This document shows, piece after piece, positions 40,344-47,838 of a stretch of 64,000 nt of DNA. The position numbers and the translations under genes are program-made. This DNA comes from a virus. The stretch is from the IMG/VR virus record IMGVR_UViG_3300046786_000331, positions 1-64,000 of that record, one strand, 5' to 3'. Under the pieces are notes generated by a model. That model was not told the origin of the DNA, did no database searches, and was given only the letters and a program-made list of their open reading frames with translations. How positions within the stretch are numbered: the first letter of the stretch is position 1; every line of letters starts with the position of its first letter.

Positions 40344-40428
40344 GGTTTTCTTGCTCTAGATTAAACTCAGCGTTTAATTTTTGCCCCCGTGTATCTAAAT
40401 ACTATACCGATTACCGGGAGCGAATTTT

Positions 40429-40920
40429 ATGAAAAGAGTTTTAATTGGATTGGGAATTACTCTGGCTGTACACAATGTATCTGCGGCTGAAATCCAGCAT
40501 ACATTCAACAGCCCTGCTTTTAGTGGCGTTGGATACAGTTCTCACGTTCTTACATTAAAGCAACTAGAAGATCAACAGAAAGAAAAAAATAAAGCTGCTG
40601 TTGATGCATTAAAAGCTGCTGCTGAAAGAGAAGCAGCAAACACTCCACAGGCTAGATTTAAAGCTAGCATGGAGACTAGAGTTTACAGTGAACTAGCCAA
40701 ACGAATTAGTGATAGTTTATTTGGTAGTACAACTACAGCACCTACATGCAACGGAGGCGGTTCTAGTTCCGCAGGAAGCCCTTGCGCAGCCATTGAGCTT
40801 GTAGGACAAAACATTTCTTGGTGGATTAGTGGATCTAACATTATTGTTAGAATCCAAGATGCTAACGATCCTAATACATTTACAGAAATGACTATGCCTT
40901 ATTCAGCATTTAAAATCTAA
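40429..40920 (+). CDS. csgF: curli assembly component CsgF-like
   Basis: Signal peptide then IQHTFNSPAFSG (cf. F.F.NP.FGG); precedes csgG. Confidence 0.75.
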   Translation: MKRVLIGLGITLAVHNVSAAEIQHTFNSPAFSGVGYSSHVLTLKQLEDQQKEKNKAAVDALKAAAEREAANTPQARFKASMETRVYSELAKRISDSLFGSTTTAPTCNGGGSSSAGSPCAAIELVGQNISWWISGSNIIVRIQDANDPNTFTEMTMPYSAFKI

Positions 40921-40930
40921 GGACTAAACA

Positions 40931-43851: not shown

Positions 43852-45767
43852 TAACACGCATTTTACAGTTCTTGTTATTTTTAACTGTGTGCATTAGCGC
43901 ACATGGTCAAACATATTATAATGCCATTGCCACTGCCTATGTTACAACAACTATTAGTCAGAACGTTGTATTCAATAGTACAATGCAACAAGGTGGAACA
44001 TTTACCTTTAGTGTTCTAGCACATAACGGTGGAGGTCGTGCAGGGCAAAGCGATACAGCCAACGTAAAGATTGAATTCTTTAATAGCAGTGGCGGATTAA
44101 TAACCAGTGTAAACTCTAGTAACTCTGCTAACTTGCCTAACCCAAATGCGGTGTGTGGTAATCCTTGTATTGACACAACAGTTCCTTGGACAACACTAAC
44201 CACCACAACTACATTAACATCGGCACAGGCAGGAAACGTTGCTTATGCTCGAGTCAGTATGTATGGTATCGACGGAAGCTATTGGGCAGGTGATTATGGT
44301 CCTTGGTATCGTGCTCCTACTCTGCAACTTAACAGTGGTGGCAACTTATTGTATAACCCAGAATTTGGACCATACAATAACGTAACAGCACAGGGCTGGA
44401 CAAGTAATCCAGGCTTCGGTGCTTGCCAAGGCGCTTGGGGCGGAAGCAATGCCTGTATCGTTAACAGCGACGGTGTGCCGGGTTCTAGCACAGTTGGCTT
44501 AGTTGCTAACGCTAACGGCGGTGGCCCGAGTGCCACTGGTGGTACAACTAGTGGAACTCCTGGAGGCTATAATAATACAATGTCAGTAACCAATGCAGGC
44601 ACAGGCGCAACAGCAGGTGCTCCCCCACCACCTCCACCGCCCGCACCAACAGCAATTTACATGGACAACTCTGCTATAAAAATTATAAGAGCAATCCCAA
44701 CCAGTAACAACAGTCCTAGTGGTGAAGGTCCTAACAATGCCTTTGATAATAACTCAGGAACAAAATATCTTAACTTTGATAAAAAGAACGCAGGTGTAAC
44801 TGTTCAACTAAACACAGGAAAAATAGTTACCGGATTTACAGTTACAACAGCTAACGACTTCAGTGGACGTGATCCTACTAGTTATAAACTCTACGGAAGC
44901 AATGACGGATCAACTTGGACTCTAATTAAACAAGATGCTATTACATTAAGTGATAATAGATTTACCACAAGTTCAGTTATTAATGTTGCTAACACAACTG
45001 CCTATGCTTATTACTTTATGCTGTTCCCAACAACTAAAGCTGGGGAAGGTTGCGGACTAGATTGTAATAGTATGCAGATTGCCGAGATAACATACTACTA
45101 TGATGCTAACAGTACAACAACCTCAACTGCTTCAAGTTCTACTATTGTTGATCCAGTAACTGCGGCAGCAAATACCCTGTGTTGTGGTGGCTCGGCAAAT
45201 TCCTTTAATTCTGATACAACAAACACTGCAAAGGTACAGACATTTTTAAATCGTACTACTGCCGATAGCCAAGTGTTTATCGAACAAATTGGTACAGGCA
45301 ATACTATTGATGTTACCCAATCTGGAACTAGACAGAATTATTTAAAATATTACGGAAATGGTTCTAATAACAACGTAACAGTTCAACAGTCTGGAAACGC
45401 CAGTACCGCTGTAAACTATGCTGACTTAACTGTTAACGGAAATTCAAACACGCTTAATGTTACACAACAAAGCACAGGTGGCGGGAAAGGTGTATTTGTA
45501 ACAGTTAATAATAATTCTAATATTATCAACATCACACAAAAAGATTCTGGAAGCCATTACTTAGATTTAACACTTTCCGGCGGTAATAAAACTGTTGATG
45601 TTCTGCAACAAGGTTCAGCTGGACACATGGCTAGTATTAATCTAAGCGGAAATCCTACAAGTTTAAATTTAACTCAGAGTGGAAGCACACAAAATTTCTA
45701 CTCAATTACACATAACTGTGCAACAGCAGGCGGTTGCGCACCGATTACAGTTAAACAGGGCAATTAA
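43848..45767 (+). CDS. secreted multidomain protein: carbohydrate-binding-like and F5/8 discoidin-like domains plus C-terminal curlin repeats
   Basis: Signal peptide; poly-Pro linker; AFDNNSGTKY...DPTSYKLYGSNDGSTW; QxGxxN repeats. Confidence 0.75.
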   Translation: MITRILQFLLFLTVCISAHGQTYYNAIATAYVTTTISQNVVFNSTMQQGGTFTFSVLAHNGGGRAGQSDTANVKIEFFNSSGGLITSVNSSNSANLPNPNAVCGNPCIDTTVPWTTLTTTTTLTSAQAGNVAYARVSMYGIDGSYWAGDYGPWYRAPTLQLNSGGNLLYNPEFGPYNNVTAQGWTSNPGFGACQGAWGGSNACIVNSDGVPGSSTVGLVANANGGGPSATGGTTSGTPGGYNNTMSVTNAGTGATAGAPPPPPPPAPTAIYMDNSAIKIIRAIPTSNNSPSGEGPNNAFDNNSGTKYLNFDKKNAGVTVQLNTGKIVTGFTVTTANDFSGRDPTSYKLYGSNDGSTWTLIKQDAITLSDNRFTTSSVINVANTTAYAYYFMLFPTTKAGEGCGLDCNSMQIAEITYYYDANSTTTSTASSSTIVDPVTAAANTLCCGGSANSFNSDTTNTAKVQTFLNRTTADSQVFIEQIGTGNTIDVTQSGTRQNYLKYYGNGSNNNVTVQQSGNASTAVNYADLTVNGNSNTLNVTQQSTGGGKGVFVTVNNNSNIINITQKDSGSHYLDLTLSGGNKTVDVLQQGSAGHMASINLSGNPTSLNLTQSGSTQNFYSITHNCATAGGCAPITVKQGN

Positions 45768-45786
45768 TACGGCAAATAAATAGTTG

Positions 45787-47838
45787 ATGCAAATCAAACT
45801 TAAAACCGTACTGTTAAGCCCGTGGACAGCATTAATTACACTGGCATTAGTCTTAGGCATTCGTATCAGCGATCCTACGTTTGTAGAAAGCGTTAGACTA
45901 CGTTATTTTGATACTTTAATCACTGCTAAAGAACCTACACAAAATAATATTGTTACAGTTAACATTGATGAAGAATCATTAAACAAACTAGGACAGTGGC
46001 CATTGCCGAGGGCACAGTATGCTAAAATTATTAAAGACTTGTATGATAGGGGTGCTGGCCTTGTTGTTCTCAACGTGCTTATGGCTGAGCCTGATCGCAC
46101 TGGCGGTGACGCAGCTCTTGCCCAGGCTCTTCGGAATTATCCCGTTGTCTTAGGTAACGTTCCTAGCGACAAAACACGCAACACTCCACGTAATCCAGGA
46201 GCAGCAATTCTCGGTCCAGAGTTCATGGATCAGATTGTTCAGTATCCTGGAGTCATTGCTAATATCCCCCCAATAGAAAATGCAGCAGCCGGTGTAGGCA
46301 CTGTTAATACTTTACCTGAAGTGGACGGTGTAAATCGCCGCATTCCATTAATAGCCGCGATAGACGGCAAACTGTATCCTAGCATAGCTATGGAGACGCT
46401 GAGGGTAGCGGCCGGCGATTCAACATTTCAGGTAAAACTATCGGAGAATGGTGTTGAGAAAATGCGTATTCCAAAGTTTGGTCCTGTTACTACAGATAAC
46501 TTTGGTCGTATTTGGATTGACTGGAGTCAACAAAGTCAAAGCGTAAGTTTAACAGAATTGCCCAAAGATTTAAACGGAGCAATTGTTATTGTAGGACCTA
46601 GTGCGGCAGGTATATCCAATCCTGTTCCTACAGCAAAAGGCGCAGTATGGCCACATGATGTGCAGGCAGCAGTAATAGCAACCATGGCGAATGGTGTTGT
46701 TATTGAACGTCCTGATTATGCGGACGGTGTAGAAATTCTTGCACTGTTAGCATTTGGTTTATTATTAATATTTTTGTCGAGGTGGACTTATGTTGGCATT
46801 TGTGCTACTGTGGTTATTGTTGGTGCCATCGTTCCTGGTACTATCTACGCTTTCAATAATTGGCTCATCCTGGGAGACGCGACTGCGATCGCGGCTGGGC
46901 TTGTTATCGTTGCTCTTCATACTTATGGCGTTAAGTTTGTAAGCGAGTTCTTACAAAAGCAGGCAATCAAGAAACAGTTTGCTGGATACTGTTCTAAGGA
47001 AGTAGTAGAGATGCTACAAAAGGATCCAGACTTAATCAAGCGTGGTGTTCGTAAAGACGTATCAGTTATGTTCAGTGACTTGCGTGGCTTTACACCAATC
47101 GGTGAACACTATGGTGATGATGTTGCCGGACTAGGCAAATACATGAATGGATATATGGACAGCATCAGTCGTCCTATTTTAGATAACAAAGGTATGGTTA
47201 TCAAATATGTAGGCGATGCAAGTATGCACATTCACGGTGCGCCTATTGAAGATCCTAATCATGCACACACAATTGTTAAGGTAGGATTAGAGATGTTAGA
47301 TGCTGTTGACAAATACACCAAGCTAATGGAAGCACAAGGTTTGCCGCCGGCTGCTATGGGTTGGGGTGTAAACAGTGGTATTGGCTTTATCGGTGAGATG
47401 GGTTCAACCGATAGACACAGCTATGATATCTTAGGCGACATGGTTTCAACAGCCGCACGTTTAGAAGCACGTTGTAAAGCCTACGGCGTATTATGTATTA
47501 TTGGGGCTGAAACATACAACAGAACTAAAGACGATTTCTTCTACTTGCTATTAGATAACCTACAACCAAAAGGTAAGAGCGTAGCTGATTTGATTTATAC
47601 AGCACTACGCACTCGCGGTGAAGACTATACGAGAGATAAGATAGCACACGAAGTCATGCACGATTTATACAAGCAGAAAAAGTTTGACGAAGCTGCTGCT
47701 ATGTGTAAAAAGTTAAAAGGTAACTTTGGCGGGCAGATGGACAAGTACTATAAGATTTGGATCGAACGTTGCGACTTTATGAAGCAACAAGACTTACCAG
47801 ATAACTGGAATGGGGAGTTTGTAGCACATGAAAAATAA
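45787..47838 (+). CDS. CHASE2-domain membrane class III adenylate/guanylate cyclase
   Basis: VNIDEESL..LGQWPLPR (CHASE2), 3 TMs, MFSDLRGFT, KYVGDA, YDILGDMVSTAARLE. Confidence 0.93.
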   Translation: MQIKLKTVLLSPWTALITLALVLGIRISDPTFVESVRLRYFDTLITAKEPTQNNIVTVNIDEESLNKLGQWPLPRAQYAKIIKDLYDRGAGLVVLNVLMAEPDRTGGDAALAQALRNYPVVLGNVPSDKTRNTPRNPGAAILGPEFMDQIVQYPGVIANIPPIENAAAGVGTVNTLPEVDGVNRRIPLIAAIDGKLYPSIAMETLRVAAGDSTFQVKLSENGVEKMRIPKFGPVTTDNFGRIWIDWSQQSQSVSLTELPKDLNGAIVIVGPSAAGISNPVPTAKGAVWPHDVQAAVIATMANGVVIERPDYADGVEILALLAFGLLLIFLSRWTYVGICATVVIVGAIVPGTIYAFNNWLILGDATAIAAGLVIVALHTYGVKFVSEFLQKQAIKKQFAGYCSKEVVEMLQKDPDLIKRGVRKDVSVMFSDLRGFTPIGEHYGDDVAGLGKYMNGYMDSISRPILDNKGMVIKYVGDASMHIHGAPIEDPNHAHTIVKVGLEMLDAVDKYTKLMEAQGLPPAAMGWGVNSGIGFIGEMGSTDRHSYDILGDMVSTAARLEARCKAYGVLCIIGAETYNRTKDDFFYLLLDNLQPKGKSVADLIYTALRTRGEDYTRDKIAHEVMHDLYKQKKFDEAAAMCKKLKGNFGGQMDKYYKIWIERCDFMKQQDLPDNWNGEFVAHEK

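Follow-up and report, generated by a model that had tools for sequence, protein, structure and literature searches.

In E. coli and Salmonella, curli are encoded by two divergent operons, csgBAC and csgDEFG. A related cluster is known from marine viruses: the Pelagibacter phage HTVC008M (KC465899, 7562-13807) and the Methylophilales phage Melnitz (MZ577097, 50731-56876) carry six genes in an order identical to that of the phage studied here, with protein identities of 30-47%, and both are, as here, without CsgE and CsgD. Wittmers et al. 2022 described this cluster, its FecR protein and cyclase included, together with its expression and global distribution, and already raised aggregation and superinfection as possible functions (PMC9599517). 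The gene architecture is thus already known from marine SAR11 phages, and the novelty implied by an earlier, sequence-only reading of our DNA cannot be maintained. CHASE2, lectin heads and the D/S active site described below are unmentioned in the main texts of the pelagiphage papers.

The second half of the cluster has bacterial counterparts. A FecR-domain protein lies beside a CHASE2 sensor in the S. meliloti CyaD1 (SMc02176), SMc02177 and Clr system; there, the FecR-domain neighbour of CyaD1 is dispensable for signal perception, and CyaD1 without CHASE2 is constitutively active (PMC5498481). In the BiofilmReg operon of Burkholderia, a LysM-FecR protein is paired with a histidine kinase that has CHASE2 (PMC5192318), and in Bradyrhizobium (locus L016) FecR-headed giant adhesins are found beside a CHASE2 cyclase. 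These bacterial systems are tied to surface, biofilm or infection phenotypes. In the alphaproteobacterial holdfast anchor of Caulobacter (HfaA/HfaB/HfaD), which is conceptually near a lectin-bearing curlin fibre, CsgG-like HfaB exports curlin-like proteins by which a polysaccharide adhesin is held (PMC6707917).

The cassette and its transcription signals

The DNA analysed (the window) consists of the first 64,000 nucleotides of a 145.7-kb IMG/VR virus record. The carrier belongs to a freshwater lineage of T4-like jumbo phages of ~353 kb; a 98%-complete relative is 353 kb long and encodes T4-type gp23. The pelagiphage carriers, in contrast, are marine myophages of 140-150 kb or podophages. According to the ORF list, the cassette comprises six co-oriented genes on the + strand (40429-47838). 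The six contiguous ORFs of the earlier reading were recovered with the same coordinates and strand, and Pfam supports their families:

40395..40402, + strand: candidate late-type promoter CTAAATAC, located 28 nt upstream of the csgF start
40429..40920, + strand: csgF, 163 aa, signal peptide (Pfam PF10614)
40931..41875, + strand: csgG, 314 aa, predicted outer-membrane lipoprotein channel (Pfam PF03783)
41936..42745, + strand: Cur1, 269 aa, secreted, with CsgA/B-like curlin repeats
42748..43851, + strand: FecR-domain protein, 367 aa, secreted (Pfam PF04773)
43848..45767, + strand: Cur2, 639 aa, secreted fusion (Pfam, AF2, Foldseek)
45784..47838, + strand: CHASE2 class III nucleotide cyclase, 684 aa (Pfam)
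47828..47989, + strand: 53-aa ORF overlapping the cyclase stop, of uncertain membership in the system
48009..48037, + strand: putative terminator: hairpin with a 9-bp stem, then a T-run

Compared with the curli genes of E. coli and Salmonella, the phage has a single operon from which CsgE, CsgC and CsgD are missing and to which a FecR protein and a cyclase have been added. The absence of the three genes, remarked on earlier, was borne out on a larger scale: no CsgE, CsgC or GerE/CsgD-type domain was found in the 145.7-kb record or in the 98%-complete 353-kb relative. Unlike in the marine pelagiphage cluster, no upstream histidine kinase is evident here. Since two secreted curlin-repeat proteins are encoded beside CsgG and CsgF, the module looks complete for fibre export, and this giant uncultured freshwater phage appears to encode a full curli kit.

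The sole sizeable gap upstream of the cassette, 85 nt long, holds CTAAATAC. The hexamer TAAATA is rarer than expected in the window (39 copies vs 74 +/- 8 expected); since 19 of its 28 plus-strand copies fall into intergenic DNA, which makes up 9.4% of the sequence, the motif is likely to be meaningful. Upstream of csgF, the copy at 40396 is a credible candidate for the operon promoter, in line with the late-type promoters proposed earlier. A second copy at 45777 is too close to the cyclase start, at a distance of 2 nt, to act as a promoter of that gene; there are no further copies within the cassette. T4-type late transcription of the cassette is plausible, given that gp23 of the T4 type is encoded by the 98%-complete relative. 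The hairpin probably marks the 3' end of the transcription unit; a homologue of the 53-aa ORF in front of it was detected in only ~8 of the 76 related loci. Freshwater metatranscriptome contigs from four studies match the locus with zero differences, and a 1,689-nt contig spans csgG, Cur1 and FecR, though contaminating DNA is possible in such RNA-library contigs, and strand and transcript ends are not given by them.

Secretion channel and curlin-repeat proteins

CsgF scored 27.9 bits against PF10614 (cut-off 25.8) and is conserved in 76 of 76 viral loci. Its mature N-terminus retains F-N-S-P-x-F-S-G, which we take to resemble the peptide with which E. coli CsgF binds CsgG. CsgG (PF03783, 172.5 bits) carries the lipobox L-S-G-C at residues 14-17 and matches the solved E. 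coli CsgG over nearly its full length (E 1.5e-50, residues 6-269 aligned). Against the NCBIfam CsgG model it reached 186 bits, which is under the 505-bit equivalog cut-off; since the HfaB model gave only 15.9 bits, membership of the holdfast HfaB family was rejected. At the constriction, Y51/N55/F56 of the E. coli protein are not conserved; the HMMER alignment shows V/S/L in their place.

Both the curlin-repeat protein and the adhesin-like curlin suspected earlier were confirmed with the Pfam Curlin_rpt model, whose cut-off was reached by Cur1 (25.6 bits) and by the C-terminus of Cur2 (24.2 bits) only after summing neighbouring repeats; in addition, a profile of Cur1 homologues matched the solved curlin-repeat protein 8C50 (E 5.8e-5). 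Cur1 is rich in N/Q/S/T/G, has no Cys and contains ~11 G-x-x-N turns spaced by 11 or 22 residues. The repeats of the Q-x-G-x-x-N type and the predicted beta-solenoid are as in E. coli and Salmonella, but the phage curlins are longer than those subunits (243 residues for mature Cur1, ~620 for Cur2) and one of them bears folded lectin domains.

In the AF2 model, Cur2 is composed of a beta-sandwich (33-161), a Gly/Pro linker (171-261), a discoidin/CBM32 domain (268-420) and a curlin beta-solenoid (474-637). Pfam F5_F8_type_C scored 47.7 bits, and the best Foldseek matches were CBM32 and discoidin domains (E 4e-8 to 1e-4). The head is thus predicted to be a sugar-binding module, in agreement with the glycan-binding subunit postulated earlier. 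The second curlin of HTVC008M bears a PA14 head, which is likewise of lectin type; relative to the pelagiphage cluster, Cur2 here has the discoidin/CBM32 domain and an extra beta-sandwich. Among relatives, the head is discoidin, PA14, a CBM-like sandwich or absent, Cur2 being 140 aa long when headless and up to 759 aa otherwise, and all 22 invariant columns of Cur2 lie inside the curlin module; Cur1 has 26. Export of Cur2 meets an objection: a CsgG constriction admits unfolded chains only, yet the five Cys pairs of this long protein could oxidise in the periplasm.

The FecR protein, the cyclase and their bacterial relatives

The FecR protein (PF04773, 39.7 bits) begins with a signal peptide and lacks an anti-sigma N-domain; beyond the signal peptide, it shows no hydrophobic stretch that could serve as a transmembrane segment. 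Its AF2 model (pLDDT 84.6) consists of a FecR/PupR-like beta domain (~20-221), a long helix (240-282) and a small C-terminal beta domain (291-359); residues 51-221 match the PupR CCSSD (6OVK) with Z 15.2. The phage protein is compact, with a length of 358-369 aa across all relatives; its bacterial counterparts, in contrast, often come linked to LysM or as fusions with huge adhesins.

The cyclase (CHASE2, 145.3 bits; Guanylate_cyc, 55.9 bits) has a predicted topology of 1+3 transmembrane segments, in which TM1 is followed by periplasmic CHASE2, three TMs, the cytoplasmic cyclase domain and a C-terminal extension of ~100 aa; its identity to bacterial cyclases is ~31% over the full length, extension included. 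The catalytic residues are D432, K474, D478, D548, S555 and R559. The Ser in VSTAARLE that had been pointed out earlier does replace an Asn, found in 68 of 68 bacterial relatives, and the change is strictly coupled to another, from S/T to D. Catalytic positions are all conserved in the viral loci, in two coupled states (D/S in 30, T/N in 7, mixed in 0), while bacterial cyclases have S/T and N; by this comparison, the D/S state is phage-specific and conserved. In mammalian adenylyl cyclase, mutation of this Asn to Ser costs a factor of 30-100 in kcat, and the phage enzyme may therefore have low or altered activity. The substrate-specifying Lys/Asp pair is of the ATP type and points to ATP rather than GTP as substrate, which makes cGMP, previously considered as a product, unlikely.

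The order CsgF-CsgG-curlin-FecR-curlin is kept in 76 of 76 related IMG/VR loci (CsgG identity 59-87%) wherever the contig is long enough. The proposal of a phage system would have been undermined had FecR and cyclase not been co-conserved with csgFG; all components are found in every long-enough related phage locus. Bacterial FecR/CHASE2-cyclase pairing was also corroborated: among 68 loci with the closest bacterial CHASE2 cyclases, 46 have a flanking FecR-domain ORF, mostly an adjacent one, as in S. meliloti (PMC5498481) and Burkholderia (PMC5192318). Unlike in the phage, CsgG or CsgF was found near none of these 68 cyclases, and neither FecR nor cyclase occurs within 9 kb of six alphaproteobacterial CsgG loci. 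By these comparisons, the pairing of FecR with the CHASE2 cyclase is ancestral and bacterial, and since the sampled bacterial curli loci are without both, it was phages that joined the two modules.

Proposed function and alternatives

We favour, at roughly an even chance, a phage-borne type VIII (curli) secretion operon that makes adhesive fibres and has CHASE2/FecR sensing. One late transcript from CTAAATAC would probably cover ~40.4-48.0 kb, and Sec would deliver five proteins into the periplasm, as suggested by the signal peptides and the CsgG lipobox read from the translations. Lipoprotein CsgG would form the outer-membrane channel, capped by CsgF; unfolded Cur1 and Cur2 would be exported and would then polymerise outside the cell as beta-solenoid fibres, with Cur2 entering the fibre via its conserved C-terminal curlin module and exposing its sugar-binding head (here CBM32/discoidin and the second beta-sandwich, in relatives PA14 or others). 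The infected cell would turn glycan-adhesive, the likeliest targets being other host cells nearby or particles, which would be captured or aggregated; shielding from other phages is a possible further effect. Sugar-binding heads on repetitive or self-assembling scaffolds, as in yeast PA14/GLEYA flocculins, RTX adhesins like MpIBP and engineered CsgA fusions, make cells adhere to each other or to surfaces, like the proposed fibre. The phage scaffold differs from all three in being a natural curlin polymerisation module with a phage-encoded CsgG, and has no sequence relation to flocculins or RTX adhesins beyond PA14 or discoidin folds. The FecR protein most likely touches periplasmic CHASE2, perhaps also CsgG or the curlins, and may in this way relay envelope status into cAMP synthesis; because the phage encodes no cNMP-binding protein, the cAMP must act via a host receptor. 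Speaking against aggregation, Melnitz-infected OM43 cultures were unclumped by cytometry or TEM (PMC9004378); the S. meliloti precedent, with its dispensable FecR-domain neighbour, counts against the relay.

FecR could instead be a structural part of the secretion system, either a periplasmic adaptor or gate replacing the missing CsgE or a fibre anchor, with the cyclase a separate host-takeover gene; we hold this to be a lesser though tangible possibility. The FecR gene lies between both curlin genes, at constant length, in every locus, while in relatives unrelated insertions of 3-14 kb often come between Cur2 and the cyclase, which is reported to be kept less consistently than FecR in the clusters of podophages (PMC9599517). 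An anchor would also fit the Bradyrhizobium FecR domain, which heads adhesin-like proteins of 1,500-2,500 aa, and the likeness of FecR model residues 19-116 to the domain by which a giant RTX adhesin is anchored at the cell surface (5IX9), although the Z of 6.9 falls within the common-fold range. However, bacterial FecR genes adjoin CHASE2 cyclases without curli genes, which argues that the ancestral partner of FecR was the sensor, not CsgG, and in all five records whose fetched flank did not reach the cyclase, a CHASE2 gene was recovered 10-19 kb downstream.

It is rather unlikely that the fibres mainly shield, a lectin-headed mat masking receptors or trapping virions and so excluding superinfection during a long jumbo-phage latency. 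The idea was suggested in PMC9599517, and head swapping is also expected if the targets are glycosylated competitors or variable surface glycans; late-promoter placement, however, would bring the shield late in infection, and the sequence offers nothing that separates shielding from capture or aggregation. Quite improbable, in our opinion, is a CsgG/CsgF pore that is itself the product, serving as a gated channel for lysis timing (pinholin- or secretin-like) or for large-solute uptake, with dispensable curlin-like genes. Such a role, with which the lack of clumping in Melnitz cultures, the absent periplasmic gate CsgE and the altered constriction agree, was proposed for Melnitz and pelagimyophages (PMC9004378, PMC7029224) on the presumption that csgA/csgB were missing, whereas two secreted curlin-repeat genes, whose invariant columns speak for strong constraint, are present in every locus. 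Moreover, an outer-membrane pore alone does not depolarise the inner membrane, and the lectin heads of Cur2 are sensible only outside the cell. We give next to no weight to bacterial DNA mis-assembled or mis-binned as viral: ten homologous contigs (L004-L013) do sit in bacterial MAGs of unrelated phyla, but as short pieces bearing the phage cassette they represent mis-binned phage DNA. In 76 viral contigs, the longest of 353 kb, the cassette is surrounded by conserved phage genes; T4-type gp23 occurs in the 98%-complete relative, and two cultured phages carry the cassette as well, which refutes mis-assembly or mis-binning as the explanation of the locus.

Thus, beyond the architecture known from marine phages, the locus adds a freshwater T4-like jumbo carrier and a gene order kept across 76 related viral loci, a coupled D/S active-site state that appears phage-specific, the addition by phages of an ancestral bacterial pair, FecR and CHASE2 cyclase, to the curli core, and, in Cur2, a conserved, predicted polymerising module under swappable lectin heads.

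Layout, transcription signals and conservation of the cassette

The sequence-only reading had described csgF, csgG, two curlin genes, a FecR gene and a CHASE2 cyclase gene as lying contiguously behind TAAATA late-type promoters. Its account of the gene content was borne out, since the six ORFs carry CsgF, CsgG, two curlins (Cur1, 269 aa, and Cur2, a curlin fusion of 639 aa), a FecR domain (in a protein of 367 aa) and a CHASE2 cyclase (684 aa). CsgE, CsgC and GerE/CsgD-type domains were found neither in the 145.7-kb record nor in a 98%-complete relative of 353 kb, which upholds the earlier remark that no csgE, csgC or csgD is recognisable. 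The features of the transcription unit are as follows.

40429-47838, plus strand: six co-oriented ORFs (csgF, csgG, Cur1, FecR-domain protein, Cur2, CHASE2 cyclase), intergene gaps of -4 to 60 nt
48009-48037: 9-bp hairpin with a T-run, downstream of a small 53-aa ORF

The TAAATA hexamer is scarcer in the window than expected (39 copies versus 74 ± 8 in shuffled sequences), and 19 of its 28 plus-strand copies fall outside ORFs, in 9.4% of the sequence. Being depleted overall yet mostly located outside ORFs, the motif looks functional, and T4-type late promoters are plausible for this phage because its close relative of 353 kb encodes a T4-type major capsid protein, gp23. The promoter claim could be sustained for one of two copies: that at 40396, located 28 nt upstream of csgF in the only sizeable upstream gap, is a credible promoter of the cassette, while that at 45777, just 2 nt from the start of the cyclase gene, cannot be the promoter of this gene. 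A scan for σ70 promoters performed at chance level (30 found, 28.4 expected). The transcription unit probably spans about 40.4-48.0 kb.

The gap between csgG and Cur1 contains, at 41897-41935, a strong Shine-Dalgarno sequence, AAGGAG, and a GTG-initiated mini-ORF of 7 codons that ends 4 nt ahead of the Cur1 ATG and is spanned by a 6-bp hairpin (TCACCG/CGGTGA); the Cur1 gene has no evident Shine-Dalgarno sequence of its own. This arrangement may couple translation or control how much curlin is made relative to the pore.

Segments of csgF, csgG, Cur1, FecR and the cyclase gene are matched without differences by contigs from four freshwater metatranscriptome runs (four studies), and one of these contigs, 1,689 nt long, spans the end of csgG, Cur1 and FecR. 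Coverage is thin over parts of the Cur2 head, which is uninformative. These data are compatible with transcription and co-transcription of the locus, the contigs giving neither strand nor ends and DNA carry-over being possible.

The viral contig whose first 64 kb form the window was rated 41% complete by CheckV. Searching with CsgG retrieved 76 related IMG/VR loci at 59-87% identity, the longest of their contigs reaching 353 kb. The public runs that hold the locus are all labelled freshwater or lake metagenome, except for one labelled only "metagenome". The host must have an outer membrane. The order CsgF-CsgG-Cur1-FecR-Cur2 is kept in 76/76 loci wherever the contig reaches far enough, with FecR proteins of 358-369 aa throughout. 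As a rule the cyclase gene comes immediately after Cur2; in some relatives the two are separated by insertions of unrelated genes, 3-14 kb in all. Loss of the cyclase was considered for five records with none in the 10-kb flank and was ruled out in all five, each of which encodes a CHASE2 protein of 677-707 aa 10-19 kb downstream. Co-conservation of the FecR and cyclase genes with csgFG, the absence of which would have refuted the sequence-only reading, was thus found in the loci that are long enough to show it.

Ten short homologous contigs (L004-L013) were found in bacterial MAGs of unrelated phyla, the bins bearing the labels Chitinophagaceae, Rhodobacteraceae, Bacteroidetes, Flavobacteriaceae, Pirellulales, Marivivens and Algoriphagus. 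These contigs too carry the cassette, and they are mis-binned phage DNA.

Several other genes of this phage deserve mention. The stretch just upstream of the cassette (38835-40053) encodes a heme oxygenase (81 bits) together with a ferredoxin-dependent bilin reductase (58.7 bits). Most related viral loci retain this pair about 3 kb ahead of csgG; such genes are unusual in a phage for which no cyanobacterial host is known. At 25844-26269 ARAGORN locates a two-piece tmRNA gene of the permuted type, whose long tag peptide has VALAA at its end; the Methylophilales phage Melnitz also has a two-piece tmRNA (PMC9004378). Eleven tRNA genes are clustered at 61390-63741.

The export proteins and the two curlins

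Phage CsgG is recognised by Pfam family PF03783 at 172.5 bits (cut-off 20.8) and matches E. coli CsgG structures across residues 6-269 with an E value of 1.5e-50. A lipobox, L-S-G-C, can be read from the sequence at residues 14-17, after a hydrophobic N-terminus. The constriction loop as such is present; in the HMMER alignment, which is uncertain in the loop, the E. coli constriction residues Y51/N55/F56, not a Pfam-defining feature, are replaced by V/S/L with a one-residue insertion. CsgF, whose gene lies directly upstream of csgG in all loci, passes the PF10614 threshold marginally (27.9 bits versus 25.8), and a phmmer search against PDB sequences revealed no match to solved CsgF chains. Typical signal peptides can be read from the translations at the N-termini of CsgF, Cur1, the FecR protein and Cur2.

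Both curlins were identified through their repeats. In a six-frame search, neighbouring Curlin_rpt (PF07012) repeats summed to 25.6 bits in Cur1 and 24.2 bits at the Cur2 C-terminus, the cut-off being 20.7; individual repeats of either protein fall under it. Hmmscan of the whole proteins at E ≤ 0.01 did not list Curlin_rpt for either one, and whole Cur1 had no Pfam match at all, so that Cur1 was recognised only by the summed-repeat search and by a profile search, in which a profile of 32 Cur1 homologues matched the solved curlin-repeat protein 8C50 (E 5.8e-5). Cur1 and the Cur2 tail share a composition of 14% Asn, rich in Gln, Ser, Thr and Gly and with almost no charged residues, and contain I-x-Q-x-G-x-x-N units at a spacing of 11 or 22 residues.

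In Cur2, Pfam detects an F5/8 type C (discoidin) domain at 47.7 bits. An AF2 model built from a 38-sequence alignment (mean pLDDT 72) divides the protein into four parts.

Cur2 residues 33-161: beta-sandwich
Cur2 residues 171-261: disordered Gly/Pro linker
Cur2 residues 268-420: discoidin domain, confidently predicted
Cur2 residues 474-637: beta-solenoid of 14 regular strands, pLDDT about 82-92

The top PDB matches of the model found by Foldseek were CBM32 and discoidin sugar-binding modules (E 4e-8 to 1e-4). The same search, run on the whole model and dominated by the discoidin domain, returned no fold match between the solenoid and CsgA structures. Assignment of the N-terminal sandwich as a CBM_4_9/galactose-binding-like domain was not accepted, the ESM Atlas scores of 0.86-0.89 lying under the tool's meaningful level; it is kept as a lead only.

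Comparison of Cur2 proteins among relatives revealed 22 invariant columns, all 22 of which, C624 and C630 included, are in the solenoid module; C445 and C446 are nearly invariant. These cysteines form a C-C pair at the start of the module (45180-45185) and a C-x5-C at its end (45717-45737), Cur1 having no Cys, and disulfide locking or cross-linking of the lectin-bearing Cur2 is possible. The heads vary: relatives have none (forms of 140-187 aa), the N-terminal sandwich only, the discoidin domain only, both, or PA14. PA14 with curlin repeats is also found in the second curlin of the Pelagibacter phage HTVC008M, annotated as "hypothetical". The predicted CBM32/discoidin fold and the modular head-on-scaffold build of Cur2 support the glycan-binding subunit proposed from the sequence, and by analogy such frequent exchange of heads would resemble the behaviour of phage receptor-binding proteins.

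In relatives, the stretch from Cur2 to the cyclase gene is an insertion hot spot (14495-17374 in locus L100 and 14252-17330 in locus L135). One insertion encodes a secreted protein of 959 aa, 54% of which is N/Q/S/T/G and which has no Pfam match; that in another relative encodes two additional secreted proteins.

The FecR protein and the CHASE2 cyclase

The FecR protein matches PF04773 at 39.7 bits, and its AF2 model has a mean pLDDT of 84.6. Residues 51-221 of the model superpose on the periplasmic cell-surface-signalling domain of PupR (6OVK chain R; Z 15.2, rmsd 3.0 over 137 residues) and on the Bacteroidetes anti-sigma factor 4M0N (Z 14.1); residues 19-116 show a modest similarity (Z 6.9) to the domain by which a giant RTX adhesin is anchored (5IX9). 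The PupR match stops at residue 221. FecR-type regulators have a C-terminal STN-like subdomain that binds a TonB-dependent transducer; in the phage protein residues 240-359 form a helix of 43 residues followed by a small beta domain, for neither of which the search with the full model gave a clear match. Weak NCBIfam matches to leptospiral adhesins were not taken as evidence. While the PupR-like periplasmic domain is common to the phage protein and FecR-type anti-sigma regulators, the N-terminal anti-sigma domain and transmembrane helix of the latter are missing: no cytoplasmic anti-sigma domain, no membrane helix and no hydrophobic segment other than a cleavable-looking signal peptide were found. 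The phage protein is therefore predicted to be a soluble periplasmic FecR-domain protein and not a FecR anti-sigma regulator.

In the cyclase, Pfam recognises CHASE2 (PF05226, 145.3 bits, residues 19-326) and Guanylate_cyc (PF00211, 55.9 bits). Hydrophobic segments at about 8-26, 313-331, 339-357 and 360-378 correspond to the canonical CHASE2 topology of one N-terminal and three central segments. The metal-binding D432 and D478, the substrate-specifying K474 and the transition-state R559 are invariant in 80 relatives. The N-to-S change pointed out from the sequence is real: the transition-state position of the V-N-x-A-S/A-R motif is Ser555 instead of Asn, which is exceptional when compared with 68 bacterial relatives, all of which bar one (Lys) have N at this position, together with S/T at the substrate position. 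Among viruses, Asp548 combined with Ser555 (the D/S state) is found in this phage, in Melnitz and in 30 related viral loci, T combined with N in 7 viral loci, and S/T combined with N in HTVC008M-type phage enzymes. No mixed states of the D/N or T/S type occur among the compared sequences, i.e., the S555 change is strictly coupled to Asp548. Since the D/S state persists at identities as low as 46%, the alignments indicate a selected, phage-specific variant and not decay.

Lys and Asp are the ATP-specifying pair of class IIIa enzymes, and in mammalian adenylyl cyclase kcat drops 30- to 100-fold when this Asn is replaced by Ser. cGMP and other products were considered; with Lys/Asp as the substrate pair, which argues for ATP, cAMP is the expected product of the phage enzyme and cGMP is unlikely, so that only the first half of the cAMP/cGMP output suggested earlier is favoured. 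A search for a phage cAMP receptor (cNMP_binding) found none, either in this record or among five relatives, one of them 98% complete; cAMP would thus have to act on a host receptor.

Downstream, at 49413-50333, a perfect σ70 consensus promoter (TTGACA-17-TATAAT, extended TG) precedes the gene of a 288-aa calcineurin-like phosphoesterase. The similarity of this Metallophos ORF to the cAMP phosphodiesterase CpdA (18 bits versus a cut-off of 225 bits) is not evidence of a functional link to the cyclase.

The nearest bacterial relatives of the cyclase, at about 31% identity over the full length including the C-terminal extension, come mostly from Alphaproteobacteria, e.g., Bradyrhizobium. A search with the FecR profile found a FecR-domain ORF within 10 kb of the bacterial CHASE2 cyclase, usually adjacent to it, in 46 of 68 loci; none of these loci has csgG or csgF nearby. 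Conversely, neither FecR nor cyclase genes were present within 9 kb of alphaproteobacterial CsgG (40-47% identical to the phage protein) in any of six loci. Because the FecR/cyclase loci lack csgG and csgF and the six CsgG loci lack FecR and cyclase genes, the phage cassette looks, from gene neighbourhoods, like two bacterial modules joined together, a curli core and a FecR/CHASE2 envelope sensor.

The bacterial FecR/CHASE2 cyclase pairing cited in the sequence-only reading is also documented in Sinorhizobium meliloti, where the CHASE2 cyclase CyaD1 (SMc02176) has as neighbours SMc02177, which contains a FecR domain, and Clr, a cAMP regulator, where deletion of CHASE2 makes CyaD1 constitutive and where the FecR-domain protein is dispensable for perceiving the known signal (PMC5498481). 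In Burkholderia, an operon that regulates biofilm encodes a CHASE2 histidine kinase along with a periplasmic protein of the LysM-FecR type (PMC5192318). In Bradyrhizobium valentinum (locus L016, 2606-12181), the module comprises a LapG-like BTLCP protease, encoded upstream, a protein of 1,924 aa in which a FecR domain at the N-terminus precedes Ig-like, cadherin-like and RTX repeats, and the CHASE2 adenylate cyclase. About 30 loci of the Bradyrhizobium type have a FecR-headed protein of 1,500-2,500 aa ahead of the cyclase, an arrangement that may represent an undescribed adhesin-sensing cAMP circuit.

Relation to described phage curli and interpretation

A megablast search with the locus among 50,697 phage records gave no match, and NCBIfam provided no above-threshold names. 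HTVC008M and Melnitz, in both of which the same gene order is annotated, were found only by protein-level searches; the cyclase is 35% identical to that of the former and 46% to that of the latter. In the study of Zaragoza-Solas et al. (2020), CsgF and CsgG were reported beside genes that were not identified, and "sibling capture" was proposed (PMC7029224); Buchholz et al. (2022) took the module to be incomplete and suggested a pore that times lysis (PMC9004378). Wittmers et al. (2022) described CsgF, CsgG, CsgA/B, FecR, a second CsgA/B and adenylate cyclase, with no CsgE or CsgD, in podo- and myo-pelagiphages, detected the genes in metatranscriptomes and at every one of the 65 GOV2.0 stations, and discussed aggregation, superinfection defence and import; phage-encoded curli are widespread in oceans (PMC9599517). 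The present locus has the composition of such viral T8SS clusters, namely CsgF, CsgG, a curlin, FecR and the optional second curlin and cyclase, in order and without CsgE/CsgD. The architecture and the main ideas of the sequence-only reading are therefore already published (PMC9599517). The main text of that paper makes no mention of CHASE2, lectin, carbohydrate, PA14, freshwater or jumbo phages. New here are the freshwater habitat and a phage lineage among the largest T4-like ones. Three refinements are of wider use, namely that the second curlin has a lectin head, that the sensor pair is of bacterial origin and that the D and S of the active site are coupled.

We give about even chances to a complete, late-transcribed phage curli system that would decorate the infected cell with fibres bearing sugar-binding heads, with the attached FecR/CHASE2 circuit making cAMP. 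Against such fibres speak the absence of clumping in Melnitz-infected cultures (PMC9004378), the constriction residues of CsgG, which are unlike those of E. coli, and the 620-residue Cys-containing subunit, which would have to pass CsgG. That the pore would be the only functional part, in a locus with two curlin genes behind csgG, appears improbable to us. Somewhat less remote, though still unlikely, is that fibres would be formed and would shield the cell rather than capture. The FecR protein could also be a CsgE-like structural part, with the cyclase independent of it: no CsgE was found and the cyclase gene is at a distance in some relatives, while the two genes are paired in bacterial loci that have no csg genes. 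We consider this doubtful, and yet the likeliest of these three alternatives.

A more specific form of the fibre-and-sensor model is put forward tentatively. Phage curli would be a modular display, in which a conserved polymerisation module, the Cur2 C-terminus with its four conserved Cys, carries lectin heads (CBM32/discoidin, PA14 or a CBM-like sandwich) that are swapped between close relatives like tail-fibre tips and would determine the cells or particles to which the infected cell adheres. The FecR-CHASE2 circuit, assembled by the phage, would signal fibre assembly to the cytoplasm through a cyclase whose remodelled, phage-specific active site (D548/S555) would have changed kinetics or product. 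If true, engineered curli display would have a natural equivalent that is encoded by a virus and tied to second-messenger control of the infected cell.

The locus extends phage curli to lakes, in one of the largest T4-like phage lineages. A head-exchanging lectin curlin and an older bacterial sensor pair grafted onto curli offer handles on the purpose of viral curli and on CHASE2 sensing. If infected planktonic cells do grow sticky, sugar-specific fibres, phage-host encounter rates, cell aggregation and particle formation would be altered.
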